From a virus (taxonomy: Duplodnaviria; Caudoviricetes), in IMG/VR virus record IMGVR_UViG_3300025718_000003, positions 1 to 55,884 of that record: a DNA stretch of 55,884 bases; one strand, written 5' to 3'. Under the pieces are notes generated by a model. That model had not been told where the DNA came from. It did no database searches and saw only the letters and a program-made list of their open reading frames with translations. Position numbers and translations under genes: made by a program. This document shows, in pieces, positions 1,141-31,426 of this stretch; within the stretch, counting starts at the first letter, position 1; each line of letters begins with the position of its first letter.

Positions 1141-1434
1141 TTTGTAAACATTTTGGTAACCAAATTGATATTTACAGGCTTTTAATGCGGGCACGTACTA
1201 CGAGATATTACACCATTATCCTACTTATTTAACCCCTAAATATACGCGTATGGTGTTGATTTTGCTGGTGTCATGGGTACTATATATAATATAATGGTGT
1301 GGATAATGATGTAAATAATTGGTAATACGTAGCCCCGCCATATTGGGCGGCATGATGTAGTTAGGGGCTTCCGGCCTTTATATATCACGGGCCGACGCTT
1401 TTAAATACACCTAATGCTAACATTCTGCTAACAT
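1141..1434. other. attP region: arm-type repeats flanking a core that matches the groEL 3' end
   Basis: Arm-like pairs TGTAAACAttttGGTAACCA (1143-1162) and TGCTAACAttcTGCTAACA (1415-1433). Core TGGGCGGCATGATGTAG (1344-1360) reads G-G-M-M-stop, like the GroEL C-terminus. Lies directly downstream of int. Confidence 0.75.
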
Positions 1435-1445: not shown

Positions 1446-2615
1446 TTATAGACTTTCCATTAGTTTGCTAAACTTTTGGGAAGTCTCTTTTTTTACTGTT
1501 TGGGTTACGTGTAGGTAAACTCTTTTAGTTACGTCGTCGTCAGAGTGGCCAAGACGTTCCATAATTGCTTCTAAACTGGCCCCGGCTTCGGCTAGGAGTG
1601 ACGTATGTGTATGGCGTAGGGAATGGGGGGTTAACTCTTTATTCAGCCCGGCCAGCGTTAAAATACGTAGCATCCTACTTTCGATAAACTTAATATAGGT
1701 AGGGTAGCCAGGGTATTTACTACTAGTGAAAATAAAACCTTTATCGTAGTACGTTTTACGATGCAGCATTTTTACCGCTTTTTCTTGGGCAATCAGTTTT
1801 TCAAGTGCCTTTATGACAATAGCGTCAACTTCTATAGTACGTATAGAACTTTTAGTCTTTGGTGTTTGTAGGCGATAATTAACAATAGAGTTAGTAGGGT
1901 TATAGTATGTTTTCGTGATACTTATGGTACTGTCTGTAGTATTTATATCGGAATTTTTTAGCGGGCACATTTCCCCAGCACGTATACCGCTGTAAGCTAG
2001 GGTTAAGAATATTTCGTAATCGCCCGCTAATCCTTTTTCCTGGGCCGTTTTAAGAAATAGCGCTAGTTCTTGTTTTTCCAGGTATTTAGGTATAGCGTCC
2101 TTATTTTCTATGTCTTCGACTGTTTGCTGGGTTTTGGGAACTTTAGCGTATTGCGTAGGGTCTACTTTCAGCATATCGAATTCTACAGCCTTTTTGAAGA
2201 TCATACGGGCCGTGCCGTGTACCCCGGAGATAGTATTTTCAGCGTAACCTCTTTTCTTCATATCGGTTAGCGCATTTTGGTAAGCCCGTTTTGTGATACT
2301 GTTTAGATTTAATTCTTTAAAGTAGTGGTTTAAGCAACCTATTTCGTGTTCCCTAACCCTAACCGTACTTCCTTTTACACTGTCACTGTAGCCAGCTAAC
2401 CACTCAATAGCAAAGCTTTTAAATACTATATCCCTTTCCTCAAAGTATGTACCGTCGCCTAAGTCCTTTTGTAGTGCTGCAGCTGCTAACTGGGCTTCTT
2501 TTTTTGTCTTAAAACCCCCTTTAGATTTTTGTTTTCTATCGCCTGTAGTTGGGTTTTTACCAATATCTATTAAGTATGTCCATGTAGTCCCACGTTTGTA
2601 AAAGTGCCCTTGCAT
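1446..2615 (-). CDS. int: Tyrosine integrase with N-terminal arm-binding domain
   Basis: Catalytic residues R (GIRAGE), K (TPKT), HSLRH, LGH and Y (VYLH). N-terminal GGFKTKKEA arm-binding motif. Confidence 0.96.
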   Translation of the reverse strand: MQGHFYKRGTTWTYLIDIGKNPTTGDRKQKSKGGFKTKKEAQLAAAALQKDLGDGTYFEERDIVFKSFAIEWLAGYSDSVKGSTVRVREHEIGCLNHYFKELNLNSITKRAYQNALTDMKKRGYAENTISGVHGTARMIFKKAVEFDMLKVDPTQYAKVPKTQQTVEDIENKDAIPKYLEKQELALFLKTAQEKGLAGDYEIFLTLAYSGIRAGEMCPLKNSDINTTDSTISITKTYYNPTNSIVNYRLQTPKTKSSIRTIEVDAIVIKALEKLIAQEKAVKMLHRKTYYDKGFIFTSSKYPGYPTYIKFIESRMLRILTLAGLNKELTPHSLRHTHTSLLAEAGASLEAIMERLGHSDDDVTKRVYLHVTQTVKKETSQKFSKLMESL

Positions 2616-2683
2616 AAATGCCCTCCCTGTTACCGTTTATTTTGTAAACAACGCAGCCTTACAGCTACGTAGAAACCCTTAAG

Positions 2684-2883
<200 letters not shown>

Positions 2884-4001: not shown

Positions 4002-4244
4002 GTGCTTAACATGGCAAGGGTAAAAATTACGTGTTGGGAGGGTCTACCCGAAGTACTAACCGCGCAACATATAGCGGACTACGAGGGTATTTCCCGGCAG
4101 AGTGTTTATGAGTTGCTTCGTAGAAACCCCGTGTACGGGGGGCTAGCAAACTATGAAATAGGTACTGCAAAACGGGTGGAAAAAGCGGATTACGCTGCTT
4201 GGCGGGCAGCGCGGAAGGCAGATAGAACTAAAAGATTTTCATAA
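4002..4244 (+). CDS. Excisionase-like winged-HTH protein
   Basis: LPEVLTAQHIADYEGISRQSVYEL...IG...RV pattern typical of HTH_17/Xis proteins. Confidence 0.7.
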   Translation: MLNMARVKITCWEGLPEVLTAQHIADYEGISRQSVYELLRRNPVYGGLANYEIGTAKRVEKADYAAWRAARKADRTKRFS

Positions 4245-6814: not shown

Positions 6815-6831
6815 AAAATAAATGGGGGTAT

Positions 6832-7071: not shown

Positions 7072-7075
7072 GGGG

Positions 7076-9323: not shown

Positions 9324-9325
9324 AC

Positions 9326-10006: not shown

Positions 10007-10019
10007 TAAGGAGGGCAAC

Positions 10020-10304
10020 ATGGATTTATTAGAACAAAAACCACAATTTAGCGCTAAAGCTTTCGGACTAGGAAAAGCGGTAAGGGTAGAGGATATTAGC
10101 TACCTGCAGTCGGGTCGTAAGCTGGTATATAACAGCAAGTTTAAAGACTTAAAGACCGACGCTATTATTGCAAACTTCGCACCGTTAGAATTAGTAATAT
10201 CTTACTGGGATAAGAAAGAAGTCGGCGTACGAACGCTGCTGATACCTGTAGACCTGGTAGCGGATAAGCTAATAGAAATTAAACTTATGGAGGTAGCCCC
10301 ATGA
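10020..10304 (+). CDS. Hypothetical protein
   Basis: AAGGAGG RBS, operon context. Confidence 0.7.
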   Translation: MDLLEQKPQFSAKAFGLGKAVRVEDISYLQSGRKLVYNSKFKDLKTDAIIANFAPLELVISYWDKKEVGVRTLLIPVDLVADKLIEIKLMEVAP

Positions 10305-11035: not shown

Positions 11036-11038
11036 CCC

Positions 11039-11545
11039 ATGGACGTTAAGCAGAAAGAAAGGCAGCAGCGCGGCGAAGACTTTCAAAATGAGATTAGACG
11101 GGGCTGGCGCTTAGTGCCTAACTCATGGCGACGTCGCGTAGTGGATGGCCAGGGCAGCGGTACGCAGCCCGCAGACGAAATAATACTACTACCCGAAGGT
11201 AACGTACTGGCCGAGCATAAACGGACGGTAAACGACCGCTTTAACATTAACAAGCTGGAACCTAACCAGCAAAAGGGCCTGCTAGACTTCGACGCGGTAC
11301 TGCCTAATAACTACGGCCTGGTATTCATTAGCTTTTTAGACGAAGCCCGGCATGTAGACGAAACGTACGTAGTAAGGTTTTTAAGTTTGGCCAAATACCT
11401 ACGTAGTAAAGGGCGTATAAGCATAACCAGGAATGAATTAATGGTAAATATCCTAAGTGGTAAGGTGTGCTTTATACCTACAACAACGGCAATAGAAAGA
11501 ACTTATGATTTAAGGGGGCTGGGTACTTGCTTGAAATCTATGTAA
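11039..11545 (+). CDS. RecU-like Holliday junction resolvase (PD-(D/E)xK)
   Basis: RGEDFQ, PAD, AEHKRT and NQ motifs. Confidence 0.7.
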   Translation: MDVKQKERQQRGEDFQNEIRRGWRLVPNSWRRRVVDGQGSGTQPADEIILLPEGNVLAEHKRTVNDRFNINKLEPNQQKGLLDFDAVLPNNYGLVFISFLDEARHVDETYVVRFLSLAKYLRSKGRISITRNELMVNILSGKVCFIPTTTAIERTYDLRGLGTCLKSM

Positions 11546-13224
11546 GTAACAATATACGGATACGCGGGGCTACTACCCCACTAAGGGCGGCGGTAACAAG
11601 AGCGTTAACCATACCGAACCCCGAATATCTAAAGCGCAGGGCGCAGCGTAGGCCCTGCTGGGGCATTACGGCGACACTAACCTTATACATAGTCGTAGGC
11701 GATATTATAATAGCGCCTAGGGGCTTCCTAGCGGAACTACAGCTAATACTACTAGACCAGGGGCTACGGCCTACAGTAACTTTTAACTATAACCAAGCCA
11801 AACACGTAGACTTCGGGGCGTGGAACCCAGCTTACGAGCCATTCGGCCACCAGGTACCAGCAATAGCCGCTATGGTAGCGCAAAACGGCATAATCCTAGC
11901 GCCTGCAGGGGCGGGTAAAACGCTTATAGGTATGGCGGCCATTCGAGAAATAGCCGTACCTACGTTATGGCTGGCCCATACAATAGACCTAATAAAACAG
12001 TCGGCAGCTGCAGCAATGAAGTATATGCCAGGCGTCGGTCGTGTAGGTATGCTGGCCGAGGGTACAGTAGACTGGGGTGACGGTAAACTAATCGTAGCCA
12101 CAGCGCAGACCCTGCAGGGTAATGACAGACTGATACAAGCACTTAACGGCTTCCTGGGTATGGTAGTAGTTGACGAAGCCCACCATTTTCCTAGCGAAAT
12201 GTTTAACAGCGTAGTAGACCAGTTTACCGTTAAACATTTAAAAGGCGTAACGGCTACAGCCGACCGTAAGGACAGAATGGAAAAGGTAATGTACTTAGGG
12301 ATAGGCCCTGTGCTACACGAAGTACCCCGCGACATTCTTTACGACAATGGTTTTCTGGTAAGGCCGAAAATAGAATTTATCTATACGGACTTTTGCAAAG
12401 AAAGCGCCAGCGATCGAAACGAAATAGACGCCGTGGACGCTGGGGGCGACGACTTCGACTATGTAGGGCTAATACGGGACTTATGTGCAGACGAAGCACG
12501 TATAGAACTGATTGCCCAGGAAATTGTAGACAGCGTAGCGGGTAATTGCCAACTGGTATTATCTGATAATATCCGATATTTGTACAGGCTGCAGGCTAGG
12601 GTAAATGTACTATGGCACGCTTCCAAAGTATCCTATCCTCTATTTGACGGCGTTATACACGGTAGCTTACAGCGCTATGTATGGTACGTAGTAAAGAATG
12701 AAAAAGCGGGCCTACAAATGGTAGCCGAGGGTGCAGCCTTAGCAGTAAAGCATAACAAGGGCCTAAAGCGCTGGGAAACGAAGCACGAACAGTACACGCC
12801 CCAGGAATACGCCGCCTGGCAGATTAACCCCAGGGAACGGGCCGACCGTATCGACGCCCTAAGAGAAAGAAAGCTGCAGATCGTGTACGCCACGGCCCAG
12901 CTGGTACAGGAAGGGCTAGACATTCCCCACCTAACAGTAGGTCACCTGGCGACACCAAAGCGGGGCGACAGTAAGGAAAAGGGCAGGCAGGACGGCAGCG
13001 CAGTAGAGCAAGCTATAGGACGGCTGCAGCGTCGCGATCCTAAGAACCCTAACAAAGTGTCCATATGGAAGGACTACGTAGACTACAATATCGGTGTATT
13101 TAAAGATCAGTACCTAAGTAGGCGAAAAGTGTATAAGCGCCTGGGCCTGGTACTACCGAAAAAAGAAGCGGTAAAAAGTACTATAAGCCAGCTAGACGAT
13201 TGGCTGGGGACTATGCCGTATTAA
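11527..13224 (+). CDS. SF2 DEAD/DEAH-box helicase
   Basis: APAGAGKT, DEAHH, TAT, EGLDIP and QAIGRLQR motifs. Confidence 0.93.
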   Translation: MLEIYVSNNIRIRGATTPLRAAVTRALTIPNPEYLKRRAQRRPCWGITATLTLYIVVGDIIIAPRGFLAELQLILLDQGLRPTVTFNYNQAKHVDFGAWNPAYEPFGHQVPAIAAMVAQNGIILAPAGAGKTLIGMAAIREIAVPTLWLAHTIDLIKQSAAAAMKYMPGVGRVGMLAEGTVDWGDGKLIVATAQTLQGNDRLIQALNGFLGMVVVDEAHHFPSEMFNSVVDQFTVKHLKGVTATADRKDRMEKVMYLGIGPVLHEVPRDILYDNGFLVRPKIEFIYTDFCKESASDRNEIDAVDAGGDDFDYVGLIRDLCADEARIELIAQEIVDSVAGNCQLVLSDNIRYLYRLQARVNVLWHASKVSYPLFDGVIHGSLQRYVWYVVKNEKAGLQMVAEGAALAVKHNKGLKRWETKHEQYTPQEYAAWQINPRERADRIDALRERKLQIVYATAQLVQEGLDIPHLTVGHLATPKRGDSKEKGRQDGSAVEQAIGRLQRRDPKNPNKVSIWKDYVDYNIGVFKDQYLSRRKVYKRLGLVLPKKEAVKSTISQLDDWLGTMPY

Positions 13225-13236
13225 GGGGGTAATATT

Positions 13237-13398
13237 ATGGCCATATCAAAGGCCGAAGAATTAGCAAGAAATTTGCGGTATCTAAACTACGCGCTTACCG
13301 AAGAAGAACTTAACGCAATAGACGACATACTAGTAAACGCACTAATACGGATAGGTAGCGAAATACGAGAAACATTAGAGGGGGTATCACTAGATTGA
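13237..13398 (+). CDS. Small hypothetical protein (53 aa, not in the ORF track)
   Basis: AGGGGG RBS, MAISKAEELARNLRY..., stop overlaps the thyX start. Confidence 0.65.
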   Translation: MAISKAEELARNLRYLNYALTEEELNAIDDILVNALIRIGSEIRETLEGVSLD

Positions 13399-14060
13399 AA
13401 ACAGTAAAAGCAGGGTTTTCCATAATTGACCACGTAAGCGGCGGGGCCATACTTGAAAAATTAGAAATGATAGGCCGTATCTGCTACAAGTCGGAAGAAA
13501 AAACTACCGCAACTTCTGCGGCGCCTTTTGTCACTGGGCTAATAAAACGGGGGCACGAAGCCATGCTAGAACATGTAAGCCTTAGCGTACAGTTTACGAC
13601 TGACAGGGGCGTAACCCATGAACTAGTACGGCACAGGCTGGCCAGCTTCGCCCAGGAATCGACAAGGTACTGCAACTACAGCGCCGATAAATTCGAAAAC
13701 AGCGTAACGATTATAAGCCCTGGCTACTGGGAAGCCGCTAGCGACGACACCGAGTACGACGCCCATATTAAAAGAATGTCTAGGAGCATATACCAAGACA
13801 CCGCGCATACCGTGGAAAAAGCGTACTTCGACCTGTTAGCCTTAGGTAATAGCCCGCAGCAGGCCCGTATCGTACTAATGACTGGCACAAAAGCCGAACT
13901 AGTTATAACTGCTAACTTACGAGAATGGCGGCACATTATGAACCTTCGGGCCGTAGGCACTACAGGCGCCCCGCACCCGCAAATGATCGAAGTCATGCGG
14001 CCACTACTTGACACGTTTCACGATTTTGTACCCGTTATTTTTGATGATATTAACTACTAG
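13395..14060 (+). CDS. thyX: FAD-dependent thymidylate synthase
   Basis: ThyX motif RHRLASFAQESTR, plus GHEAMLEH and NLREWRH. Confidence 0.96.
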   Translation: MKTVKAGFSIIDHVSGGAILEKLEMIGRICYKSEEKTTATSAAPFVTGLIKRGHEAMLEHVSLSVQFTTDRGVTHELVRHRLASFAQESTRYCNYSADKFENSVTIISPGYWEAASDDTEYDAHIKRMSRSIYQDTAHTVEKAYFDLLALGNSPQQARIVLMTGTKAELVITANLREWRHIMNLRAVGTTGAPHPQMIEVMRPLLDTFHDFVPVIFDDINY

Positions 14061-14085
14061 GTATGTCAAATTTTTTTAATGCCGA

Positions 14086-14102
14086 GTGTCTTAAAAAGAC
14101 AC
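14086..14102. promoter_or_regulatory. Operator palindrome upstream of the replication genes
   Basis: GTGTCTTAAAAAGACAC, same GTGTC-N7-GACAC consensus. Confidence 0.7.
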
Positions 14103-14163
14103 GAAATACTTATTGCGTATACCAATTAATATAAAAAATAAAATTTATGGGGGAATTTACATT

Positions 14164-14955
14164 ATGACAACAGTAGCAAACACAAATGAAGAATTAGCGG
14201 CACAAAACGCGCTGCAGACTAAAGACTTAGTACAGGTACCAGCTGTGGGCGCAGTAGCCGCAGTGGCCAAAACGAAAAGCTACGCAGCGGCCCTACTCGA
14301 AGGCATGAAAGCTGACTTCCTAGAGGTCAATGATGGCATGGACTTAGATTTTGTGTACTTAGGCAGCTGGCTTACCCTAGATAAAAAAGGTATTTTCGTG
14401 GAGAAAGACGGCAAGGAAGACGTAAAAACCCGCGTAGCATACGGCGAAACTATCGACGTTATCGTAGCTCAGGGAGAAAAACGTTGGACATTATGGGGAA
14501 AACAAAAAAGCCCCGAAGATGGCCAGTTAATTGTAGCCGAGCGCGAAGAAGTAGACGCAGTAGCCAAGTTAGAAAACTGGTTAGAGCAGCACCCGGAAGC
14601 CGCAGACCGTTACGACGCACACAGCGCAAAACTTTGCTACCTGGCGTATGTTATCCCGGTTAAAACTCTTAGCCCTGACGACTACCCTAAAATCTACCTT
14701 ATGTCATTCCCTCCTACAGCTACCATAAGTTACGGCAAATACGCCTTTAACGGGGTATTCCAGGGTAAGTACAAAGTGCTAGGAATTCCAGCCCGTACAG
14801 GTATGGCCAGCGTAGTAACCCGTATCGGTAATGTAGAAGCGGGTAGCGGTAGCGAAACCTATCTAGCCCTAACCTTTGAGCCTGTAGGAATGTTTAGACC
14901 CGAAGAATACGGCGTAAATCCTAACGGCGACGTAGGCGCCCAGCAAGCAGAGTAA
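14164..14955 (+). CDS. Hypothetical replication-associated protein (possible ssDNA-binding protein)
   Basis: GGGGG RBS before ATG 14164. Lies immediately upstream of the primase-helicase. Function inferred from position only. Confidence 0.6.
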   Translation: MTTVANTNEELAAQNALQTKDLVQVPAVGAVAAVAKTKSYAAALLEGMKADFLEVNDGMDLDFVYLGSWLTLDKKGIFVEKDGKEDVKTRVAYGETIDVIVAQGEKRWTLWGKQKSPEDGQLIVAEREEVDAVAKLENWLEQHPEAADRYDAHSAKLCYLAYVIPVKTLSPDDYPKIYLMSFPPTATISYGKYAFNGVFQGKYKVLGIPARTGMASVVTRIGNVEAGSGSETYLALTFEPVGMFRPEEYGVNPNGDVGAQQAE

Positions 14956-14976
14956 ATTTACTAGGGGGCGTACTAC

Positions 14977-17900
14977 ATGGCAGGCAAGGAAAAAGAAAAT
15001 ACCGCCGACCAATTTAAGTACGTTGATGTTTGGCATAATGCGGAGAACGAGAGGTCTAGCGAATGGGAACGTATAGAATATACTAACGTTCCCAAGTACC
15101 AGCAGGAAGTAGCTTTTAACTACAATTGCTTCGCGACTATACAGCGTTTTGCTAACGAGGTAAGGGCACGGGGGGAAGAATTCATAGCCCCCCTTTACTT
15201 TGACCTAGACAGCGCCGACCCGAGCATTAGCCAGGCAGACAGCGTAAAACTTATAGACTTTCTTACAATAGAATTAGAAGTGCTGCCTACAGATATATGG
15301 ATATATTTTAGCGGAAGTAAGGGCTTTCATATTCTGATATCTAGTACAGCAGCAGGTGTACAGCCAAGCAATTATTTACATAAAGTATATAAGCATATGG
15401 CGGGCTATTTAATTCACAGGCTGGGCCTTACTACGCTGGACTTAGTTGTATACACTTCTTCGCGTATGCTGCGGCTGCCGAATTCGGTACACGCCACGAC
15501 AAAAAAATACAAAGTCGAATTATCTATTGAAGAACTGAAAACTTTAACACTAGATCAAATAAAGGAACTTGCTTCACAGCCCCGCAAAAATGCAGCCTTT
15601 ACAGGAGAGCAGCGGCGCGAAGGCCGAGCAGTACGCCCAAAGCTTGCCGACTTCTTCGAGAATAAGAAGCAAGAGCAGCAGCAGGCCATAGCAACGACCA
15701 GCGCTAGGTACCAAAAAGAAAAGTACCACTTTAGCAAAGAGCAAGCGCCCGCCTGCGTGGAAGACATTTTAGCTGGCGGCTGGAAGAAGGAAGGCGACAG
15801 GAACCAGGCTACTATACAGCTGGCCTGCTACTTCAAAGACGCAGGGCACACGAAAAACGAAGCCCTGGACATTCTAGTAAACTGGGCCACGCAGCACACT
15901 AGCGCCGAAAAAGGCTACCAAGTGCAGCAGCGTACCGCTAACACTAGAAGCGTAGTAGACGTAGTTTACAGCCAGGATAATGATTACAAGTTTGGTTGTG
16001 CTTTCATTCGCAGCCTACACGGGGAAAAGAAAATAGGCAGCAAAGACTACCAGCGCGTAGCCTGCAGCGGCGACCTTTGCCCATGTATTGGAACCGAAGA
16101 ACCTACAGAAGCGCCCATAACCCTACACTTAGCGCAGACAGGCGACGCTAGCCTAACGGGTAAGTTAATTCGAACTAGGGTAATGGTCGCAGGTAAAAAG
16201 CATACGCCGTACATAGTGCCTAAGAAAGTGGAATATAGCTGCTGGGGATATAAAGGCTGTAAAAAGGTACATTGCCCCCTATTCGATATACCGACCCATA
16301 CCGTGTACAAAGATATGGGAGTAGCTAACCGGGAACTTATACAAATGACGGGTACTGCTGACGACAACATAAAAGGAATACTACGTGAATTATCGGGTAT
16401 TCCCAGCTGCCCCAAGTTCACTATGGAAACGGTAGAAACGACCAACGTAGACGAACTACTGGTAATACCGATGGCAGAGCAAATGGACAGCAAAGAAGCG
16501 GATACGGCAGAAGGCAGCGGCCACTACGTACTACGTAAGGTATACGCAATAGGCGGGCTGGACGTATCAGAAAACAAATACTACGAACTGGACGGCTACG
16601 TATACGCCCACCCGAAGAACCAGGAAAGTACGGTACTAATCAAAGAAGCCAGGGCCTTACAGGACGTAGTAGCCAGTTTTAAGCTTACGGAAGAAGCTAA
16701 GGAACTACTGCAGGTATTTAAGCCCCACGACTACAGCCCGGAATGTATCGAAGAAAAGCTAGCGGCCATATGCGCCGACCTAACGTACAACGTAACCCGT
16801 ATCGTACAAAGAGACGAAACGCTGCTAGCCCTACTACTTGTACAGCACAGCGTACTACGCTTTTCGGTACCCTGGGACAGCAGCCAGCTACGCGGCTGGG
16901 TGGAAGCTATGATAGTAGGCGACACTTCGACAGGTAAGAGCGCACTAATAGAAAAGCTTATGCGGTACTGCGGCCTAGGGGCACGGGTAAACGCTGAGAG
17001 TACCAGTAGGACAGGCTTAACCTACAAGATGGAGCAGAGCGGGGCAGGCGGTAGCTGGTACATTGTATGGGGCGCCTGGCCACTAGCTGACAAAGAAATG
17101 ATATGGATTGACGAAGCTAGCGGCATAACTAAGGATGAATTCGGAGAAATGACGCTAGCCCGGTCAGACGGCCGCCTAGAAGTAAAGCGGGCTGTAACAG
17201 CCGAAACGCCGTGTAGAGTACGGGCTATATTGACCAGTAACGTACCGAAAGGAAAAATGTTAGCTGATTATGGCCAGGGCGTAGAGAGCCTTAAAGACCT
17301 GTTTAATAACGAAGATATACGCCGCTTCGATATGGCCGTGTTTATGAAGGCCGCAGACGTCGCGCCCGAAGTTTATAATCAACAGTTGCCTACGTACCCT
17401 AGCATGATAACCAGTGAAGCGTATAAAACCAGCATACTGTTTGCCTGGTCACGTAAGCCCGACGACGTTATTTTTGCAGAGGATACTATAGACCGCATAC
17501 TTTCAGTATCTACAGAACTTTCTAAAATATATGGAAATGCTGCAGACATTCCACTGGTGAACCCTGCCGATCAACGTAATAAGATAGCCCGTCTTAGTGT
17601 AGCGCTGGCCGTACTCACTCATAGCACCGACGAAACGGGCCATAAAGTGGTAGTACACCCTGGGCACGTAACATTTATAGGCGAGTACCTTAAAAGCTTA
17701 TACAACGCCCCAGGCTGCGGCCTTAACTATTACGCAAAGCTAGCCATTAAAGAAATGGAAATGACTAAAGACCGCTATGAGCGAATAACCGTAGACCTTA
17801 GAAAAATAGACACTTTAAAAGGTGATATTAAATTCTTTGAGTTTATAAAGCTTTTCGCCAGGCAGAAGTATTTAAGGCTGGGGGACGTCGAAGCCATGCT

Positions 17901-18063
17901 TTCAATTGATAAGGAAGAATCTAAAGCTATTGTAAATACTCTGGCTAAAATGCGAATGGTAGAAATGACTAGCGGCGGCTACCGCAAAACTTCCCGGTTT
18001 AACGCGTATATAGCCTACTGCTTCAAACTAGGGCTATTTGATGATATGGAAGATGATTATTAG
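14977..18063 (+). CDS. Archaeo-eukaryotic primase (AEP) fused to an MCM-like AAA+ helicase
   Basis: AEP motifs FDLD, SGSKGFH and RLPNS. PriCT-like EGDRNQ. Cys clusters. MCM motifs GDTSTGKS, STSRTGLT, GAWPLAD, IDE and RRFD. Confidence 0.9.
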   Translation: MAGKEKENTADQFKYVDVWHNAENERSSEWERIEYTNVPKYQQEVAFNYNCFATIQRFANEVRARGEEFIAPLYFDLDSADPSISQADSVKLIDFLTIELEVLPTDIWIYFSGSKGFHILISSTAAGVQPSNYLHKVYKHMAGYLIHRLGLTTLDLVVYTSSRMLRLPNSVHATTKKYKVELSIEELKTLTLDQIKELASQPRKNAAFTGEQRREGRAVRPKLADFFENKKQEQQQAIATTSARYQKEKYHFSKEQAPACVEDILAGGWKKEGDRNQATIQLACYFKDAGHTKNEALDILVNWATQHTSAEKGYQVQQRTANTRSVVDVVYSQDNDYKFGCAFIRSLHGEKKIGSKDYQRVACSGDLCPCIGTEEPTEAPITLHLAQTGDASLTGKLIRTRVMVAGKKHTPYIVPKKVEYSCWGYKGCKKVHCPLFDIPTHTVYKDMGVANRELIQMTGTADDNIKGILRELSGIPSCPKFTMETVETTNVDELLVIPMAEQMDSKEADTAEGSGHYVLRKVYAIGGLDVSENKYYELDGYVYAHPKNQESTVLIKEARALQDVVASFKLTEEAKELLQVFKPHDYSPECIEEKLAAICADLTYNVTRIVQRDETLLALLLVQHSVLRFSVPWDSSQLRGWVEAMIVGDTSTGKSALIEKLMRYCGLGARVNAESTSRTGLTYKMEQSGAGGSWYIVWGAWPLADKEMIWIDEASGITKDEFGEMTLARSDGRLEVKRAVTAETPCRVRAILTSNVPKGKMLADYGQGVESLKDLFNNEDIRRFDMAVFMKAADVAPEVYNQQLPTYPSMITSEAYKTSILFAWSRKPDDVIFAEDTIDRILSVSTELSKIYGNAADIPLVNPADQRNKIARLSVALAVLTHSTDETGHKVVVHPGHVTFIGEYLKSLYNAPGCGLNYYAKLAIKEMEMTKDRYERITVDLRKIDTLKGDIKFFEFIKLFARQKYLRLGDVEAMLSIDKEESKAIVNTLAKMRMVEMTSGGYRKTSRFNAYIAYCFKLGLFDDMEDDY

Positions 18064-18075
18064 GAGGGCGACAAA

Positions 18076-18363
18076 ATGTATGAAGTATCAGTAATGCGAG
18101 GGCTGCCGAAGCGCGGCGAACACTTCCAAAATACAAAGACCGGCGACACCTACGACGTAATCGAAATACTACCCTTAGGGGTAAAGCCCCCAGGCTTCGC
18201 CGTCAATGCTAACAATGGTAAACACTATTTGACAGAAGCCCAGGTACTGTATAGCAAAGGGGCGCTTACTTACTACCGAAAGGTAGACGAATTTATGGGC
18301 CTACGATTCGACGAGAAGCAGAAAGCCTACGTAACCCGCTTTATTAGGACAAAAGTGTTATGA
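18076..18363 (+). CDS. Hypothetical protein (DUF1653-like)
   Basis: G..FQNTKTG..YDVI...VLY...Y.R...EF.......RF pattern. Confidence 0.55.
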   Translation: MYEVSVMRGLPKRGEHFQNTKTGDTYDVIEILPLGVKPPGFAVNANNGKHYLTEAQVLYSKGALTYYRKVDEFMGLRFDEKQKAYVTRFIRTKVL

Positions 18364-20864
18364 GACTAGGCGGCATGTTCCCCAGCAGTAGGGGCCTAGC
18401 CGATACGGTGAAGAAAGCGGCACCCATAACGGCCGCCGCTTCTTCCCTGGCTACGGCCATAGTAAATGCTGTAAGTAAAAAGCCTGGTGAATTCAATATA
18501 AAATGGCCAAGAATGAGAACCCAAAAAGTAAAAGACTACAAGGTAATTACTACAGTAGAGCAGCTAAGGGCTTACATAGCCCGTTGCGTAGAAACTGGTA
18601 TAGGCGGCTTCGACTACGAAGCAGGGCCAAGCGCCAAGATACGCGCCAAGTATGAACCGAGGATAGCAGGACTGGAAAGCGAGTTATCAGCGCTAGCCCG
18701 TATAGAACCTTACGACGATAAAGAACGGCGGGAAATAACGGCCAAAGCTAAGACATTAGAAAGTCAGTTAAAAGCCACTAAAAAAGAATATGATCGAAGC
18801 CCGTTAGACCCGCACAGAGCGGCAATATGTGCCCTTAGCCTGTCAGCAGCCCCCGACGAAGCGCGGGCAATTTTTATAAGCAATAAGCCGGGTAAACGTA
18901 CTTTTGAAACGGGTATAACCGATAGGGACGAAGCAAGGCGCCTAGTATTCGACATACTGGAAGAAGAATTCTTTCACAGCCCTAAGATAATGAAGATCGC
19001 CGTTAACTTGCAGTACGAAGCTACGCAGACCGCAGCCCTAGGCAAGTACATTTTGCCACCAGTAGCCGACCCTTTCCTAATGTGGATACGTTGTCTGCAG
19101 GTAGTAGCGCCCCATAAGATAAATCCCGACGTACCGTACGAAGGCAAGGGCCTTAAACCTATGACAAAAGAATACCACGGCGTAGAAATGCAAGACTTTA
19201 AGGCACTGCTGGCAGAATTCGGCGTAAACTTCTTCGACGAGATACACGCCGACGAACCTAAAGCCCTTTCGTATTGCTGCGAAGACAGCGACTATGCAGT
19301 ACAGCATTATCTATACTGGCTAGAGATAGCCAGGCAGATACCGGGATACGACTACTGGCTGCATAATATTGAAATGCCTTTTGCCCGTGTCATAGGACTA
19401 ATGGAGTTTAACGGTATGGCCTGGGACAATAACCTAGCGGAAGTAAAAGAGCAGGAAGCGGCCATAATGCAGGAACAGGCCAGCGATGAGATAAAGCGTA
19501 TTGTGCTTGAAGCTACGGGCCTAAAAATCAATACGGGCAAGACAGGTAAAACCAATGAAGTAAAAAGCGTAATATTCGACACTATGGGGCTAAAGGCTGC
19601 CAAATGGTCGAAGACGACGGGCGATGCTAGCCTAGACGAAGAAGCCCTTATAGACATGCGCTTTATGTTGGAAAACAAGTTAGAGGATATTAAAGAAGAA
19701 AAGTACCTAGCAGTAGCCCTGCCCGATAAATGGGAAGCTTTAGACCCCGATACTGACCCCGAACTTAGTAAAGACGAACGCCAGGCTATAAGGATAGCCC
19801 GCAGGCCCTGGCACCCGTACAAAGACGCGGCCCTAGCTCTAATAGCGCAGCTACACAAGATACAGCAGTACAGTACGCTGCTATCTTCTCACATTATAGG
19901 GCGCGCCAAGTACCAGCACGAAGAAACGGGCCGTATTCATGCTAAGTACAGCCAATGGACGGAAACCAGCCGCCTAAACAGCTATTCACCGAACGGGCAG
20001 AACGTGCCCGCTATGCACAATGATGTATTTAAAATTCGTAACTTCTACGTACCTGCTAAGGGTAAAATACTCTATTTCATAGATTTTAGCGGCTTCGAAC
20101 TTCGGTTAATGGCCTGGAAATCGGGCGACCCGGTTATGATCGAACTATTTAACACGGGCGGCGATATGCACAGAAGAACAGCTGCGGAAATAACAGGTAA
20201 GGCAGAGAAGGACGTAACCGACCACGAACGTACAGACGCGAAACCCGCTAACTTCGGTATATCTTATGGGGGCACAGAACACGCCCTACAAAAAACCGTT
20301 AAAACCGATTACGGTAAGCGCTGGACGCTAGACAAATGCGCTAGTATCGTGGCTGCTGTAAAAAATGCTTACAAGGGTATCCCACGATACCAGCGGGATA
20401 TAGTTATCACGGCCAGGGAACAGGGATGGGTAAGCACTATTTACGGGTACATTCGTCTGCTGCATAACATTAACAGCCCTAACAAAAACACCAGGGGCAG
20501 CGACGAGCGCCGCGCTGGTAATACGCCAATCCAAGGTAGCGCGGCCGACGTTATGAAAAATTGCCAAAACCAGGTATACGACGAAATAGGGCGCGGAACG
20601 CTGGCGCGTAGACTCGACCCTAACGCTGACATTATCCTGGCCCATGGCGTTACTGATATGGAAGCGCAGATACACGATGAAATTATATTCGAAATGACTG
20701 ACGACGTTAACGTAGTAAGAAAAGCCAGTGCCTGGGTAAAATCCATTATGGAAATGCCGCCGCTTCCCGACTTCCCCGTAAAAATAGAAGCAGAAGCGTC
20801 GGTAGGGTATCGCTGGGGAGAAAAGGAGAAGGTAGACAAATGGATAGCAAAAAAGAACGCGTAA
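18360..20864 (+). CDS. Family A DNA polymerase with 3'-5' exonuclease domain
   Basis: FDYE and YCCED (exonuclease), TSRL...PNGQN, DFSGFELR (motif A), R..AKPANFGISYG (motif B), IQGSAAD and IHDE (motif C). Confidence 0.96.
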   Translation: MRLGGMFPSSRGLADTVKKAAPITAAASSLATAIVNAVSKKPGEFNIKWPRMRTQKVKDYKVITTVEQLRAYIARCVETGIGGFDYEAGPSAKIRAKYEPRIAGLESELSALARIEPYDDKERREITAKAKTLESQLKATKKEYDRSPLDPHRAAICALSLSAAPDEARAIFISNKPGKRTFETGITDRDEARRLVFDILEEEFFHSPKIMKIAVNLQYEATQTAALGKYILPPVADPFLMWIRCLQVVAPHKINPDVPYEGKGLKPMTKEYHGVEMQDFKALLAEFGVNFFDEIHADEPKALSYCCEDSDYAVQHYLYWLEIARQIPGYDYWLHNIEMPFARVIGLMEFNGMAWDNNLAEVKEQEAAIMQEQASDEIKRIVLEATGLKINTGKTGKTNEVKSVIFDTMGLKAAKWSKTTGDASLDEEALIDMRFMLENKLEDIKEEKYLAVALPDKWEALDPDTDPELSKDERQAIRIARRPWHPYKDAALALIAQLHKIQQYSTLLSSHIIGRAKYQHEETGRIHAKYSQWTETSRLNSYSPNGQNVPAMHNDVFKIRNFYVPAKGKILYFIDFSGFELRLMAWKSGDPVMIELFNTGGDMHRRTAAEITGKAEKDVTDHERTDAKPANFGISYGGTEHALQKTVKTDYGKRWTLDKCASIVAAVKNAYKGIPRYQRDIVITAREQGWVSTIYGYIRLLHNINSPNKNTRGSDERRAGNTPIQGSAADVMKNCQNQVYDEIGRGTLARRLDPNADIILAHGVTDMEAQIHDEIIFEMTDDVNVVRKASAWVKSIMEMPPLPDFPVKIEAEASVGYRWGEKEKVDKWIAKKNA

Positions 20865-26101: not shown

Positions 26102-26267
26102 AAACTTAAAACGGAGTAATAGGGAGATATAACGAGGAAAACAGGGGTGCGTAACTAGTAAGATTATAGGCTGTAAAACGGGTTAATATGACGGTATACG
26201 GGTAGTGGAATTCGGGGTAAGAAGTACGTTTTGGGGTTTTACAGCTGTAATGTCTACGAGGGACGGA

Positions 26268-26463
<196 letters not shown>

Positions 26464-26477
26464 TAGGAGGTATTTGG

Positions 26478-26855
26478 TTGAAGGTACAGGGCTATATAGC
26501 TAAGGAGACGGTTAAGAAGTTGCTAGCGAACTACCAGGGGCTAATAGCGGGGGATTTGGCAGTAGATGCTATGCCTTGTAATTCGGGGCCAAAGGCTTAC
26601 GATGGCGTTACAGGTATGTTGCTTAATAAAATAATGCTGGATGAAGCCGTGGAAAGTCTACCACCAAAATTAAGGGCCTGTGTCACATTGCGCTGGTTGC
26701 GGGGTAAGTCGAGGGGCGAGACGCTTATGGAATTGGCCATCGGCCAAAAAGAGTACTACAAGAGTTGTGACCTGGCTGTAGATGCCATTTACAGAAAAAT
26801 TAACGGCCGGGCTACGAATTACCAAAACCTACTAAATAAGATAGCCGCAAAGTAA
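26478..26855 (+). CDS. Late transcriptional regulator, sigma-70 region 4 / ArpU-RinA-like
   Basis: LDEAVESLP..LR..V.LRW..G HTH pattern. Immediately upstream of terS. Confidence 0.7.
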   Translation: MKVQGYIAKETVKKLLANYQGLIAGDLAVDAMPCNSGPKAYDGVTGMLLNKIMLDEAVESLPPKLRACVTLRWLRGKSRGETLMELAIGQKEYYKSCDLAVDAIYRKINGRATNYQNLLNKIAAK

Positions 26856-27003
26856 CTATATGGAATTATGATAACTATATGGACGTATTATAAGGAAAAG
26901 TGTTTACACACCAGTAGTATGAATCTTATTATTACTATAACGGAAATTTTATGATCAAAAATAGACCAGGGAAGGCAGATAATGCCGCTTCCCTGGTCTA
27001 TTT
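26853..27003 (+). promoter_or_regulatory. Late control region: direct repeats and a long hairpin
   Basis: TAACTATATGGA at 26853 and 26872. 16-bp perfect stem 26959-26974/26988-27003. Confidence 0.55.
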
Positions 27004-27056
27004 CACGGAACACATAGGCGTTTACGTAGTTTTTACAGGAAGGAGGCACGGCAATT

Positions 27057-27788
27057 TTGGACACGGATTTAGAAACAAATGGTAATTTTAACCCCCATGA
27101 TGAAGCACTAAAAAAGCAATTACATGAAAAAGCCGACAAATTAAATTTTGTAGGCTCACGAAAAGGTACGACCGTTTTGTACTGTGGCGCTGTAAAGAAG
27201 GGAAATCCTTGTAAACAGCTAGCGGGGAACTATACCGATCATTTCGGGCATGGGCGCTGTAAATTTCATGGGGGCCTAACTACTGGCCCCAAGACCGAAG
27301 AAGGCAAGGCTATAACCGCGCAAAATGCTACGAAGCACGGCTTATACAGTAAAGGACTTAGCCCGGCAGAACGTGAGATATACGAAGAACTGTTAGAAAA
27401 GCCTAAGATAGACCTTTCGCATGAAATACGGCTGCTGCAGACTAAAATCATTACCTACCTGGAAGAATGGCGTAGACGATACGAATATTACGAACAGACT
27501 TTAGGCGTACATGAAGCTGATAAAAAAATGAAGGTATGGTATACAACAGGAGAGAACGGGGATAAAGGTTGTTATCATGCTGGCACGATCGAAGACAGGC
27601 CGCTTATTAGGGCACTAAACGAATTGGCCAAAATGGTAGAGAAAAACGCCAGGTTAGACCCCGAAGGAAACGAAGACCTTTTATCTATTGTTAATAAAGA
27701 ATTACAGGCGGCTTCTCATGGGAAGATTACAGTAGCTTGGGGCGCTAGAAATGCACAAGCTATACAGTCTACGTTAGCAAAATGTTAA
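27057..27788 (+). CDS. terS: Terminase small subunit (HGGxSTG motif type)
   Basis: C...GRCKFHGGLTTGPKT.EGK....NATKHG motif. Position before terL. Confidence 0.75.
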   Translation: MDTDLETNGNFNPHDEALKKQLHEKADKLNFVGSRKGTTVLYCGAVKKGNPCKQLAGNYTDHFGHGRCKFHGGLTTGPKTEEGKAITAQNATKHGLYSKGLSPAEREIYEELLEKPKIDLSHEIRLLQTKIITYLEEWRRRYEYYEQTLGVHEADKKMKVWYTTGENGDKGCYHAGTIEDRPLIRALNELAKMVEKNARLDPEGNEDLLSIVNKELQAASHGKITVAWGARNAQAIQSTLAKC

Positions 27789-27854
27789 CATTTGATACCT
27801 TTCAAGGCTTCGGCCCTTTATATACAAGGGCGTAAAGGGATAGATTACATCATG
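27773..27854 (-). repeat. Second, inverted att-like half site (core plus arm)
   Basis: The reverse complement aligns without gaps to 1351-1432, 58/82 identical by hand count. Confidence 0.85.
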
Positions 27855-27933
27855 ACGGGGATAACAGTGGTTAAAATACGCGGTTTTTATGTCTTAAAAA
27901 TAACTTTGTACAATAGTATAAAAGAATATGAGC

Positions 27934-27965
27934 AGGCGGGGGAGCAATAACCCCCGTCTTTCTTT
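27934..27965 (+). terminator. Terminator-like hairpin upstream of the terL operon
   Basis: AGGCGGGGG-agcaataa-CCCCCGTCT followed by TTCTTT. Confidence 0.5.
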
Positions 27966-27978
27966 ATGGGGGTGTACT

Positions 27979-28197
27979 ATGGAATTGACTAAAAAAGAAG
28001 AACGGTTAGCCGAGTTATTGGCCAAAACCCCAGGCGAGAGCCTTAATATAGGCTATGTTTGCAGCACACTTAGGACAACGCCGCGTATGCTATTAAGTAA
28101 GACGCTTCCGGGGTTACGTGCAAAGCTGGAAGCACACGCTACAGAGCAGCAGCTAACCGCAGCAAGAAAGGCGGCCAATTATGGCGCCAGTACCTAA
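27979..28197 (+). CDS. Small HTH-like hypothetical protein
   Basis: GGGGG RBS before ATG 27979. Overlaps the terL start. Confidence 0.6.
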   Translation: MELTKKEERLAELLAKTPGESLNIGYVCSTLRTTPRMLLSKTLPGLRAKLEAHATEQQLTAARKAANYGAST

Positions 28198-29857
28198 CAC
28201 GGAATTCGATTACCGGGAGGACGTAGACCCGATAAGTGGGGCACCTGTCATAATATCCGTACCTAAGACAGTAAGGGCCGCGCTAGAGGGTATACCATAC
28301 GCAGTTATTAACGACATTGCCGAGTTATTCCAGCCCGACCGCTTACGGGAAGCTTGGCGCATACTACGGCGTAACGACCCATTCGACTACCAACTAGAAA
28401 TAGCTGACGCAATTATATACAGCTGCGTCAATTACCTGGGCTGGTTATTCGTGGTAATGATAAGCCGCCAGGCAGGTAAAAATGAGATAAGCGCATTTAT
28501 AGAACATTATTTACTGCTGTATGGCTACGTATGCGGGGTGCCCGTATCGGGTGTAAAGTTTGCCCCTGTACATAAGCCCCAGGTACAGGCTTCGAAAGAT
28601 AGGCTAGAAGGTAGCGACACGGTAGAGGGTAATGGACTAGCTGGCTGCTTGCTTACTAAAAATCTATGGAAGTCGGCAGACGGTTTTAAGTATCATATAG
28701 GCCCGCCCCGCGATAGTAACAAATGGGTATTCTTGTCTATTAATCCTAGCGCTAGCGTCGCTTCACAAACAGCCCTTACGCTGCTGGAAGGCGACGAAGC
28801 CCAGGACATAGATACTAACAAGTGGGAACGTGATGCCCAGCCCATGGCCAGCTTTAGAAATGCTACTACAGTCTTTTATGGTGTAACCTGGACTAAGGGC
28901 TGCCATATTGAGAAAGCCAAGAACCAGGCGTATGACATGGAAGTTCGGCTAGAAGCAGAATTAGGGTACAGGCCGAAGCTAGTATTTAAGGTGGACGCCC
29001 TGGCCGTAATACGCAGCGGTAACGCCTTCTACAAAAAGGCGTTCGAAAGTCAGCTAGCCAGGTTAGGCCCCGATCATATAGCTATACAGACGCAGTACTT
29101 ACTAAATGCGGTAGATACAATCGGTAAATTCTTTACAGTAGAGCATAGGGCGCGAATGTATGCCAATACCCACCGTATGAGGGTAGGCCCCGACCCTAAA
29201 AGCATATACGTATTCAGCGTAGACGTAGCGGGCCAGGAAGAAGAAGTAACCGAGATAGACGAGGTAGAGGTAGGCTGTCATAAGCGCGACGGAATAGTGC
29301 TACTTATAGGGGAACTTCAAACAGACGGTACAGTCGTGCCCGTATGTATTTATCAATGGGTAGGTATAGCGCATAGTAAACAGCGCGATCAAATACTAGC
29401 CATTATAAAACATTGGCGCTGCATAGGCGGCGCGGCCGACGCTACAGGCATAGGCGAAGCGTTAGCCTACTACCTAATAGAGAAGCTTCCACGGCTGGAA
29501 GTCGAAGCTTATAAATTTAAGGCCCAGGGCGACGAGAATAAGAGTAAATTGGGCTACCTGGCCTACAACTACGTAGCTGCTGACAAAATAAAGATACCAC
29601 CTAGACCAATAAACGACCCCCTACAGGCAGAATTATGGGACGAGTTAAAATGGCAGGTAGAAGAACTGGTACGAGTGGCTAAGAAGCAGCAAAGTATTAA
29701 TTTCCACGTACCAGCTAACGCGATACCCCGTAAAATAGGACATCAAGCGCATGACGATTTAGTTATGGCGCTTTTTTTGCTTATTAGGGCTGCTTTTATC
29801 ATTAAAAACCCTAACCTGAGACAGGCGAAGGCTATAGACAGAAACCAAATAATGTAG
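28181..29857 (+). CDS. terL: Terminase large subunit
   Basis: SRQAGKN Walker A, DEAQD Walker B, nuclease motifs DVAG, DATGIG and HDDLVMA. Confidence 0.93.
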   Translation: MAPVPNTEFDYREDVDPISGAPVIISVPKTVRAALEGIPYAVINDIAELFQPDRLREAWRILRRNDPFDYQLEIADAIIYSCVNYLGWLFVVMISRQAGKNEISAFIEHYLLLYGYVCGVPVSGVKFAPVHKPQVQASKDRLEGSDTVEGNGLAGCLLTKNLWKSADGFKYHIGPPRDSNKWVFLSINPSASVASQTALTLLEGDEAQDIDTNKWERDAQPMASFRNATTVFYGVTWTKGCHIEKAKNQAYDMEVRLEAELGYRPKLVFKVDALAVIRSGNAFYKKAFESQLARLGPDHIAIQTQYLLNAVDTIGKFFTVEHRARMYANTHRMRVGPDPKSIYVFSVDVAGQEEEVTEIDEVEVGCHKRDGIVLLIGELQTDGTVVPVCIYQWVGIAHSKQRDQILAIIKHWRCIGGAADATGIGEALAYYLIEKLPRLEVEAYKFKAQGDENKSKLGYLAYNYVAADKIKIPPRPINDPLQAELWDELKWQVEELVRVAKKQQSINFHVPANAIPRKIGHQAHDDLVMALFLLIRAAFIIKNPNLRQAKAIDRNQIM

Positions 29858-29872
29858 AAAGGGGGCCTTTTA

Positions 29873-31426
29873 ATGGCAATAGCCGCAGCAGTACCTGTAG
29901 CTTTATCCCTGGCCATAGGCGCGCCAGCATGGGCACAGGATAACGGGGTGTGGTTACGGACGCTAATCACGAAACATAGTAACTACCTTAACGAAGAAGG
30001 TATATTAGCCTACCAGGCAGCGTATGACGGCGACCTAGAGAGTATAACCAGGCGCGAAAAAGACCGGGGCGATAGTATCAATAATAAGCTGCAAGTAAAC
30101 CTATCCCAGCTGATTATTGATACCGTAGTAGACTATTTGACCGGGAAGCCGATAGTATGGACGGTAGAAGATAGCGAAGAAGTCGCAGACAAAACCCTGC
30201 TGGAAGAATACCGTAAAACTATTATTCCACTACTACGTAAGAACGAAGCACAGCTAGTATTAGCCGAACTACTACGTCAGGGAAGTATAGGCGGGTACGG
30301 CGCAGTAATTGCATGGGTAGATGAAAACGGTAAAATTGATTTTAATGAGTACCCGCTTAACGAGGTTATACCCGTATACGATACGAAAGGTCGCCTATGT
30401 ATGGTAGTACGCTACTACGTATTCGCTGTAGCCGACATTAACGGTCAGGAAATAGTACAGACACGGGCCGAAGTATACGACGAAAAGTACGTAACCTATT
30501 ATATCGGTAACGACGGTGGCGATGGCTTCGAACTAGACGCCGACGAAATACCGACAGGGAACCCGGTAGAGCATAGGGCGGGCCGTATTCCAGTAGCTAT
30601 ATTTACAAATGGGACGCCTGCCAGGTACATAAAGCGCTTACTACGTGGCGGCGTTAGCGACTTAGGTAACGGTGTTTTAACATTGCTGGAAGCTTACGCC
30701 CACGGCATGAGTGATAAGGCCAATTACGTAGAATACCTACAGGACGCTTATCTGCTGCTTAAAGGGGTAGATGTAGACGAGAGAGAGGTTATAAAAATGC
30801 GGAAGGCTAGGGCGCTGGCCCTTACTTCCGTAGAGAGCGACGCGTCTTTCATAGCGCAAGACCAGGAAGACAAGGCGGTAGAAAACCATTTAGACCGCAT
30901 ACGCGATACTATACACGATCAGACACAAATACCCCGGCTAAACGATATAAGCGGTACTACAGCGACCGAAGTAAAAATGAAGTACGTACCCCTGGACATA
31001 AAGGCAGGAAAAAAAGAATTATACTTCACTTCGGCAGTAAAACAGCTGACGGCCATTATTACTGATATGCTGAACGCGAAGCGCCTAGTAGACGCGGGTG
31101 TAGCTGACGAAGACATACATAGCATTATATCGGGCATGGTTGAAACAAAGACAGCCCTTTTTAATGCGGAATGGCTGCAATTCACGGTAAGCCGCAATTT
31201 GCCGCAGAACTTTAAAGAAATTGCCGATATTGTTACTGAATTGTCGGGCAAAGTACCCGACGCTTATCTGTATGAATTACTATGGTTTATAGACGACCCA
31301 GTAGCAGCCCTGGAAGAAATGAAGAAACAGACCCAGGCTACGGCAGATATGACCGCTTCTACAGCTTTAGGCTTCGGGGCTGGTTTTGCTGGTACTGGCG
31401 TAGTAGATAGCACGGGCACCGCATAA
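29873..31426 (+). CDS. Portal protein (SPP1 gp6-like)
   Basis: NNKLQVN...IIDTVVDYLTGKP, SDL and RNLP.N motifs. Confidence 0.92.
   Translation: MAIAAAVPVALSLAIGAPAWAQDNGVWLRTLITKHSNYLNEEGILAYQAAYDGDLESITRREKDRGDSINNKLQVNLSQLIIDTVVDYLTGKPIVWTVEDSEEVADKTLLEEYRKTIIPLLRKNEAQLVLAELLRQGSIGGYGAVIAWVDENGKIDFNEYPLNEVIPVYDTKGRLCMVVRYYVFAVADINGQEIVQTRAEVYDEKYVTYYIGNDGGDGFELDADEIPTGNPVEHRAGRIPVAIFTNGTPARYIKRLLRGGVSDLGNGVLTLLEAYAHGMSDKANYVEYLQDAYLLLKGVDVDEREVIKMRKARALALTSVESDASFIAQDQEDKAVENHLDRIRDTIHDQTQIPRLNDISGTTATEVKMKYVPLDIKAGKKELYFTSAVKQLTAIITDMLNAKRLVDAGVADEDIHSIISGMVETKTALFNAEWLQFTVSRNLPQNFKEIADIVTELSGKVPDAYLYELLWFIDDPVAALEEMKKQTQATADMTASTALGFGAGFAGTGVVDSTGTA

Follow-up and report, generated by a model that had tools for sequence, protein, structure and literature searches.

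The DNA analysed here, which we refer to throughout as the window, is an IMG/VR virus record of 55,884 nt. Its first 118 nt recur at its end, indicating that the assembly is circular or permuted with a length of about 55,766 nt, and the gene for an actin-like segregation protein spans the record ends. A leftward module with a tyrosine integrase gene (int) and a CI-like repressor gene (cI) is followed by a long rightward early block that holds genes for SbcC-like and Mre11-like proteins, a helicase, ThyX, a primase-MCM protein and a family A polymerase (Table 1). The late region begins with a 125-residue ORF (orf125) that we consider a candidate late regulator; it has a weak match to Sigma70_r4_2 at 0.009, which is under the cut-off. 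Candidate small (terS) and large (terL) terminase genes come next, and then portal, tail and lysis genes. The first-pass annotation had already named terL, a call that is upheld by DNA identity to a terminase gene of Bacillus phage vB_BboS-125 and by synteny with the portal gene, but not by searches of Pfam, PHROGs and PDB sequences, none of which gave a match. In the cultured phage collection that same terminase gene is the sole match to positions 26400-29900, and positions 1-3000 have no near relative. Among the ORFs scanned (20 early ORFs and others), no site-specific recombinase other than Int was detected.

Table 1 Features of the window around attP and between the terminase genes
Feature	Position	Strand	Description
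P-arm tandem pair of probable arm-type sites, TGTAAAC-ATTT-TGGTAAC	1143..1160	+	~200 nt left of core
attP common core, TGGGCGGCATGATGTA	1344..1359	+	last host groEL codons (M G G M M and TA of the stop); from contig ends and genome searches
Copy A	1351..1432	+	right core part and P' arm (host-like spacer with dyad, GGGCCGA, arm pair)
P'-arm tandem pair of probable arm-type sites, TGCTAAC-ATTC-TGCTAAC	1415..1432	+	starts +56 from core
int, tyrosine integrase with arm-binding N-domain	1446..2615	-	Pfam Phage_integrase 2.6e-23; Arm-DNA-bind_4 1e-16
Element X, between cI and int	2682..2883	.	stem (TAGGGGTA...TACCCCTA), (TAA)n tract, palindrome before ribosome site
cI, CI-like repressor	2918-3574		same strand as int, just upstream of int
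Candidate excisionase (Xis)	4002..4244	+	phrog_66 'excisionase and transcriptional regulator', 3e-5
Element X', inverted copy of X	26234..26462	.	upstream of orf125
orf125, 125-aa ORF, candidate late regulator	26478..26855	+	phrog_23784 (function unknown), 4.5e-23
Candidate small terminase (terS)	27057..27788	+	PHROGs terminase small subunit families, 3.7e-8 and 3e-7
Copy B, putative orphan half-att site	27773..27854	-	core box, spacer and arm pair, in register with copy A
Probable arm-type pair of copy B, TGTTAAC-ATTT-TGCTAAC	27773..27790	-	+56 from core box, one mismatch to P' pair
Core box, ATGATGTAA	27845..27853	-	same in all three terS-side copies
Conserved spacer, right of copy B	27855..27927	+	82% identity, window versus G001, against 62% inside copy B
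ORF between copy B and candidate terL	27928-28197		
Terminator-like hairpin, then T run	27934..27959	+	kept in G001
Candidate large terminase (terL)	28181..29857	+	73.7% DNA identity to vB_BboS-125 'terminase-like family protein'; portal gene next

The attachment site of the phage was located with the help of two public peat metagenome DNA runs, X1 and X2, which contain the phage (0.94 and 0.91 of sampled words, respectively) and whose contigs were aligned on window positions 1-20000. The search for runs returned these two and no RNA run. In each run, the contig that covers int and the adjoining arm has 12-14 divergent letters before position 1344, and one contig of X2 has divergent letters behind 1359 that by eye are another groEL-flank-like sequence. 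Translation of 14 of the contig letters in frame with positions 1344-1359 yields G M G G M G G M M stop, which we take to be a typical GroEL tail. The exact 16-nt core is present in 47 of 401 sampled genomes (one Bacillota-type phylum), against two hits for the reversed control. Of the 54 places found, 52 were retrieved and inspected: the 16-mer terminates a GroEL-type ORF reading ...TTEAV.ADKPE...GGMGGMM and stop in 41, lies inside an unrelated ORF in six, and in five is a second copy without a preceding groEL, as expected of attR. The 14 letters that precede 1344 in the contigs are those of the groEL end in six of the 52 loci. From the contig junctions and the position of the 16-mer at the ends of GroEL-type ORFs, we conclude that attB is the 3' end of host groEL and that the common core is 1344-1359. 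The sampled peat contains both lysogens, seen as attL contigs, and the circular form from which the window derives.

As in other elements that integrate at the groEL 3' end, the att core and the final codons of groEL overlap, and int and groEL are convergent. Staphylococcal phage-inducible chromosomal islands, for example SeCISE48, are described as integrating there (PMC8125051), and these islands and the phage have in common, as far as the islands are described in that source, that attB is the groEL 3' end, that the att site overlaps the last codons and that the gene stays intact (PMC8125051). The SeCISE48-type islands are small satellites of cocci according to the same account, whereas the element described here is a 55.8-kb phage from a peat metagenome, and the likeness noted here is one of target (PMC8125051).

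The organization of the site is that of a lambda-type attP: its core is shared with the host attB and gives hybrid junctions in two runs, its integrase has separate arm-binding and catalytic domains in Pfam, and arm-type repeats are present on both arms, at 1143-1160 and 1415-1432. When the whole window was searched with the arm-pair pattern, allowing up to 3 mismatches, three matches were returned against 0.23 expected by chance. They are the P arm (three mismatches), the P' arm and a pair in a segment described below, copy B (one mismatch). The same arrangement recurs in relatives of the integrase. An Int homologue (42-67% identity, some fragments) converges on groEL in seven of the 52 loci, and six of these seven carry a perfect tandem 7-mer with an 11-nt period that starts +55/56 or +65/66 from the core. 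The sequence of the 7-mer varies by lineage (TGACCAC, TGTTGCC, CGGTAAC, AAGTAAC or TGCTCAC); the window has TGCTAAC twice. In a prophage that is integrated elsewhere and encodes an Int 53% identical to that of the window (G002), the pair lies 56 nt away from the 16-nt attL/attR repeat of that prophage and the other arm bears another pair; in the attR of another genome (G059), three arm repeats are seen at 118-150 nt from the core. These repeats of G059 and G002, some 118-150 nt from their cores, are on the same side as the P-arm pair of the window. By eye, the stretch between core and arm pair resembles the native DNA behind groEL in element-free genomes, which has a small hairpin and then a TATAT-rich run. 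Their position, phasing and co-variation suggest that the tandem 7-mers are very probably arm-type Int sites. By its sequence features, 1360-1432 is a standard P' arm for this integrase family, in which a host-like spacer leads to a pair of probable arm-type sites at +56, spaced by one helical turn, and attP spans about 1143-1432.

Copy B sits 26.4 kb from attP, inverted, inside the phage genome. The first-pass annotation had identified 1351-1432 as the integrase-proximal (P') half of attP and 27773-27854 as an inverted copy in register with it, and both assignments are supported. Our recount of the ungapped match between the reverse complement of 27773-27854 and 1351-1432 agrees with the original figure of 58 identical positions out of 82, with zero gaps. 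Extended to 1348-1435 and 27770-27857, the two arms form an 88-nt inverted repeat of 70% identity (62/88), the second-longest of the window. When 1195-1445 was compared without gaps to the reverse strand of the genome, the highest score, 36, fell at copy B; 200 dinucleotide shuffles of the attP region gave a mean of 15.7 (sd 1.8, maximum 26). The blocks that had been named within the match are all present, namely CATGATGTA, GGGCCGA, and the arm pairs TGCTAAC-ATTC-TGCTAAC in copy A and TGTTAAC-ATTT-TGCTAAC in copy B. The spacer length had been described as kept, and it is 55 nt in both copies; as had also been noted, the stop codon of terS (TAA, 27786-27788) lies within the arm pair.

Two of the earlier statements hold in part. 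The nine shared core nucleotides are real, but they are merely the right part of the 16-nt common core at 1344-1359. Over that core, copy B matches at 12 of 16 positions, the right nine of which are contiguous, with mismatches at 1345, 1346, 1347 and 1350. Copy B had also been placed between terS and terL. It adjoins terS, but is separated from the terL-like gene by the ORF at 27928-28197 and the hairpin at 27934-27959. The arm pair of copy B is in register with its core box, as in a complete att site, whereas a second arm is lacking, with no tandem pair in 27855-28300. Homology with attP ends at the core box, and the left half of the core is missing. In its layout, copy B is what would be expected of a half-site of the attL kind, with terS in the place of int.

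Lambda-type heterobivalent tyrosine integrases act at arm-type and core-type sites in attP and attL. The system described here is like lambda-type att in having an Int with an arm-binding N-domain, a short core in common with attB and tandem arm-type sites at a constant spacing from that core, and copy B resembles the core-plus-P' part of a lambda-type attL. Unlike a lambda-type attP, copy B has a partial core and no partner arm, and lies inside the phage genome. We know of no description of an attP with an internal orphan arm of this kind, and a full-text literature search found none. Copy B was also considered as an RNA-level element. No Rfam family matched copies A, B or X, either at the gathering score or at E up to 5, single-strand folds of the window copies are unremarkable on both strands (z -0.6 to -1.6), and there is no intrinsic terminator within copy B.

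The inverted orientation of the two copies had led to the proposal that Int recombines attP (or attL/attR in a prophage) with the inverted copy, flipping about half of the genome and thereby connecting or disconnecting the late operon from its regulator and terS. Copy B is suitably inverted and in register, and it retains an arm pair along with nine contiguous nucleotides of the core; a 6-8 bp crossover located within CATGATGTA would make the two sites compatible, and Int is the sole site-specific recombinase among the ORFs scanned. Nevertheless, we find such a switch unsupported and consider it highly improbable. The sole full-length relative, the provirus G001, is collinear with the window from 1446 to 54980. 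No contig of X1 or X2 joins 1344-1359 to the flanks of copy B, in a search that used contigs, which drop rare isomers, and that covered 1-20000. The alternative flanks at 1344-1359 in the two runs are of groEL type instead, and by eye the letters behind 1359 in the contig differ from the reverse complement of 27816-27845 at 9 of 30 positions. The four mismatches in the left half of the core, two of which would fall inside a crossover centred on the core, and the missing P arm beside copy B also argue against recombination at this site, and a flipped form would transcribe the late genes away from their regulator and terS.

Programmed inversion is known from phages Mu (Gin/G) and P1 (Cin/C), in which dedicated serine invertases act at short identical sites flanking tail-fibre segments of a few kb, and both orientations are easily seen. 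The window is like these invertible segments in having inverted repeats of a recombination site within a phage genome. It is unlike them in that no dedicated invertase was found among the ORFs scanned, the two sites are 70% alike, and a second orientation was seen neither in G001 nor in the contigs at 1344-1359.

Conservation of the element was examined in relatives. Scans of IMG/VR with element X and with the copy B flank gave one match, G001, and a metagenome scan with X gave six loci of which one, L029, is related. G001 is a provirus record of 54.6 kb in which Int is 85% and TerS 88% identical to the window; it begins 3 nt past the int stop and ends within the phage, and attL and attR are absent from the record. 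L029 is a short, heavily deleted phage remnant in a bacterial metagenome contig. Both keep copy B without a gap. Out of 82 positions, copy A is identical to the window copy B at 58, to the G001 copy at 52 and to the L029 copy at 61, and the pairs of terS-side copies are identical at 51 (window and G001), 54 (window and L029) and 52 (G001 and L029), again without gaps. The L029 copy is accordingly closer to the attP copy of the window (61/82; 79% over 77 nt in blastn) than any two terS-side copies are to each other (51-54/82), which is a sign of exchange between the two kinds of copy.

Between the window and G001, copy B is 62% identical, whereas the terS 3' end is 83% and the right spacer 82% identical, showing that most of the element drifts about as fast as unconstrained DNA. 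The three terS-side copies share 42 invariant columns, with runs of nine (ATGATGTAA) and eight (TAACATTT) and a column-shuffle P of 0.002 for two such runs. In G001 and L029 terS ends before the arm pair and the boxes lie past the stop, so coding does not account for the second box, TAACATTT. Agreement between the arm repeats in the G001 copy, and likewise between those in the L029 copy, does not exceed 5/7 positions (by eye 5/7).

Outside this group the element was not found. In all 24 of the more distant terS relatives compared, the core box is lacking within 200 nt of the terS stop, and vB_BboS-125 has abutting terS-like and terminase genes. Directly past the terS stop, tandem repeats of another kind, with a period of 12-13 nt, are seen by eye in many of the distant terS relatives. 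In three further genomes that carry a groEL-site integrase (G059, G377 and G294, of which G059 alone has a complete prophage), an arm-pair scan allowing up to 3 mismatches found nothing beyond attL/attR, apart from one 2-mismatch match inside an ORF without other similarity. A search for terS in the 401 genomes gave two distant matches and nothing else. By these comparisons, copy B appears to be a lineage-specific element for which there is no general need.

This pattern bears on the main rival to a functional site, which is that copy B is a neutral relic, the decaying and functionless remainder of an old duplication or recombination in which the two flanks of the int cassette were copied, with boxes that are due to chance or have an unrelated purpose. 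We regard this as somewhat unlikely. A relic would be expected to diverge faster than its flanks (62% against 82-83%) and to have imperfect arm repeats, as the G001 and L029 copies do. It would also be dispensable, in keeping with the failure to find it in the other groEL-site genomes or in distant terS relatives and with the abutting terminase genes of vB_BboS-125, and it could persist even in a heavily deleted remnant in a bacterial contig such as L029. Against decay stand the absence of indels in three lineages at about 38% divergence and the concentration of invariant columns in the two boxes where Int would be expected to bind (P = 0.002). In addition, the terS-side copies are at least as similar to the attP copy as to one another, which constraint or conversion fits better than free decay. 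The zero gaps over 82 nt in the window, G001 and L029, together with the clustering of invariant columns in ATGATGTAA and TAACATTT, count for constraint on copy B.

The location of copy B at the terS stop raises another alternative, a packaging or expression signal that merely resembles an att arm, such as a pac site bound by TerS, a late promoter or operator, or a terminator. Tandem repeats of 12-13 nt are often seen by eye past the stop of distant terS relatives, and the terminal overlap of the record is as expected of circular or permuted DNA, both of which would suit a packaging signal. We nonetheless think it unlikely that copy B is such a signal, given that the homology with the P' arm extends over the full 82 nt, beyond the repeats alone, and that the core box is found within 200 nt of the stop in 0 of 24 distant terS relatives, against the conservation looked for in a pac site. 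A role as a terminator or RNA signal is further disfavoured by the lack of a terminator-like site inside copy B, by the fold z-scores of -0.6 to -1.6 and by the lack of an Rfam match.

Copy B is not the only part of the int region that recurs, inverted, in the late region. Element X, between cI and int, has an inverted counterpart X' upstream of orf125, with homology (26268-26439 on the X' side) over 94 nt at 87% and 51 nt at 84% identity. G001 has both X and X', and L029 has the one copy possible there. The int unit and the orf125-terS unit consequently have common 5' flanks (X) and common 3' flanks (Y, that is, copies A and B) in the same order relative to the direction of their genes. Int shows no similarity to orf243 or orf125, which were tested as paralogues, and the interval from X' to copy B holds no remnant of int, which means that the flanks alone are common to both units. 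The simplest guess is a single event in which the sequences on either side of the int cassette were both copied.

In run X1, one contig agrees with the window up to 2883 and then continues, for at least 255 nt, beginning with the exact reverse complement of 26238-26267. This contig is either an X-by-X' recombinant or a contig of X' placed on the 16 nt common to X and X'; that its aligned part has no mismatch slightly favours a real X/X' junction. It is conceivable, although we doubt it, that the nested inverted pairs X and Y are both working recombination sites, giving isomers in which the early region or the int-to-terS half is flipped and lysogeny is coupled to late expression.

Our preferred reading, which we put forward tentatively and from sequence comparison, is that copy B is an orphan half-att site that may still bind the integrase and has a local role between terS and the terL operon. 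The N-domain of Int would occupy the arm pair of copy B and its core-binding domain would contact ATGATGTAA, and the site would act locally and would not serve as a routine crossover partner. As int lies downstream of cI on the same strand, lysogens may make Int. By way of conjecture, the site could, when Int is present in the cell, form a protein block or an insulator ahead of the conserved hairpin at 27934-27959. The orphan half-site would probably have arisen together with X', in the event that placed a copy of X ahead of the late-regulator gene; a common origin of X' and copy B is suggested by the recurrence of both int-cassette flanks, in unchanged relative order, around orf125-terS.

Arm-type integrase sites are, to our knowledge, known solely as parts of attachment sites. 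A precedent for a local role comes from the KplE1 prophage, where IntS and TorI at attL are described as repressing the intS promoter (PMC2951348). As presented there, and as proposed for copy B, an integrase at att-type sites acts on transcription rather than recombination (PMC2951348). In the KplE1 account the site is a genuine attL and int itself is regulated, whereas here a separate copy lies before packaging and late genes and its part in regulation is a proposal (PMC2951348).

The P' arm layout described here, with a host-like spacer and an arm pair at +56, is common to a family of groEL-targeting elements. The common X and Y flanks of the int and orf125-terS units are an unexplained piece of genome architecture, and copy B offers a concrete and cheap target for binding and reporter tests. 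If the conserved copy B functions, the integrase of a temperate phage would have a further job or a further substrate.

Besides the half-att copy, the genome carries a second inverted pair, X and X', which lies between cI and int and ahead of the late-regulator candidate, respectively (see table). Each member has a conserved stem, a palindrome ahead of the ribosome site and a (TAA)n tract of about 12–13 units in the window and 8–9 in the full-length related provirus G001. Neither X nor X' has a match in Rfam. One contig assembled from peat metagenome run X1 tracks the window up to position 2883 and continues as the exact reverse complement of 26238–26267. It possibly represents an isomer produced by X-by-X' inversion, or else a paralogue aligned to the wrong copy.

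Coordinates of the features discussed in this part
Feature	Location	Strand	Remarks
Inverted pair X/X'	window 2682-2883 and 26234-26462		upstream of int (X) and of late-regulator candidate (X')
Second ATGATGTA box	window 1306-1313		P arm, 38 nt left of core
Palindromic stretch, 46 nt	window 26958-27003		between orf125 and terS; self-match in reverse 87%
Type-P5 twister ribozyme	window 54925-54979	+	score 64 bits (gathering threshold 37.6)
Actin-like segregation protein	window 55304-55884, continuing at 1-344		Pfam ALP_N, 9.8e-22
Short phage remnant	L029 4436-12385		in bacterial contig, adjoins histidine kinase genes
groEL-end 16-mer copies	G251:C14 33878, 42454, 47489

The short related remnant in metagenome contig L029 runs in the order X', late-regulator candidate, terS, half-att copy, tape-measure gene, HTH_17 protein and a different integrase. 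It lacks terminase, portal and head genes, and the tape-measure gene follows the half-att copy immediately. Many distant terS relatives (L098, L101–L102 and L104–L116) have tandem repeats directly 3' of the terS stop codon, with units of GTAGTAAA, TGCAGTAAA or TGCATAAA and a period of 12–13, and a terminator often comes next. The word TACAGTAAAAAGA, which resembles these repeats, is invariant across all X copies. The palindrome between orf125 and terS is kept in G001.

Near the right end of the window, 57 nt of the twister ribozyme are 98% identical to G001, and the DNA around the ribozyme is only about 78% identical. The actin-like segregation protein is encoded by a phage that integrates as well; the G001 record stops short of the region matching its gene.

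Of the five copies of the 8-mer ATGATGTA across the genome, three lie in att-type regions. At attP itself, two further contigs, both from peat run X2, diverge from the window, one behind 1359 and the other behind 1381, into sequence that is like the P' arm and the groEL flank but identical to neither copy. An empty attB or attR, together with at least one related groEL-targeting element, may be present in this sample. Several sampled genomes (G251, G278, G352, G059, G177 and G381) carry the groEL-end 16-mer twice or three times. In the first three the copies are a few kilobases apart and all on one strand, as would be expected of small islands in tandem integration at groEL.
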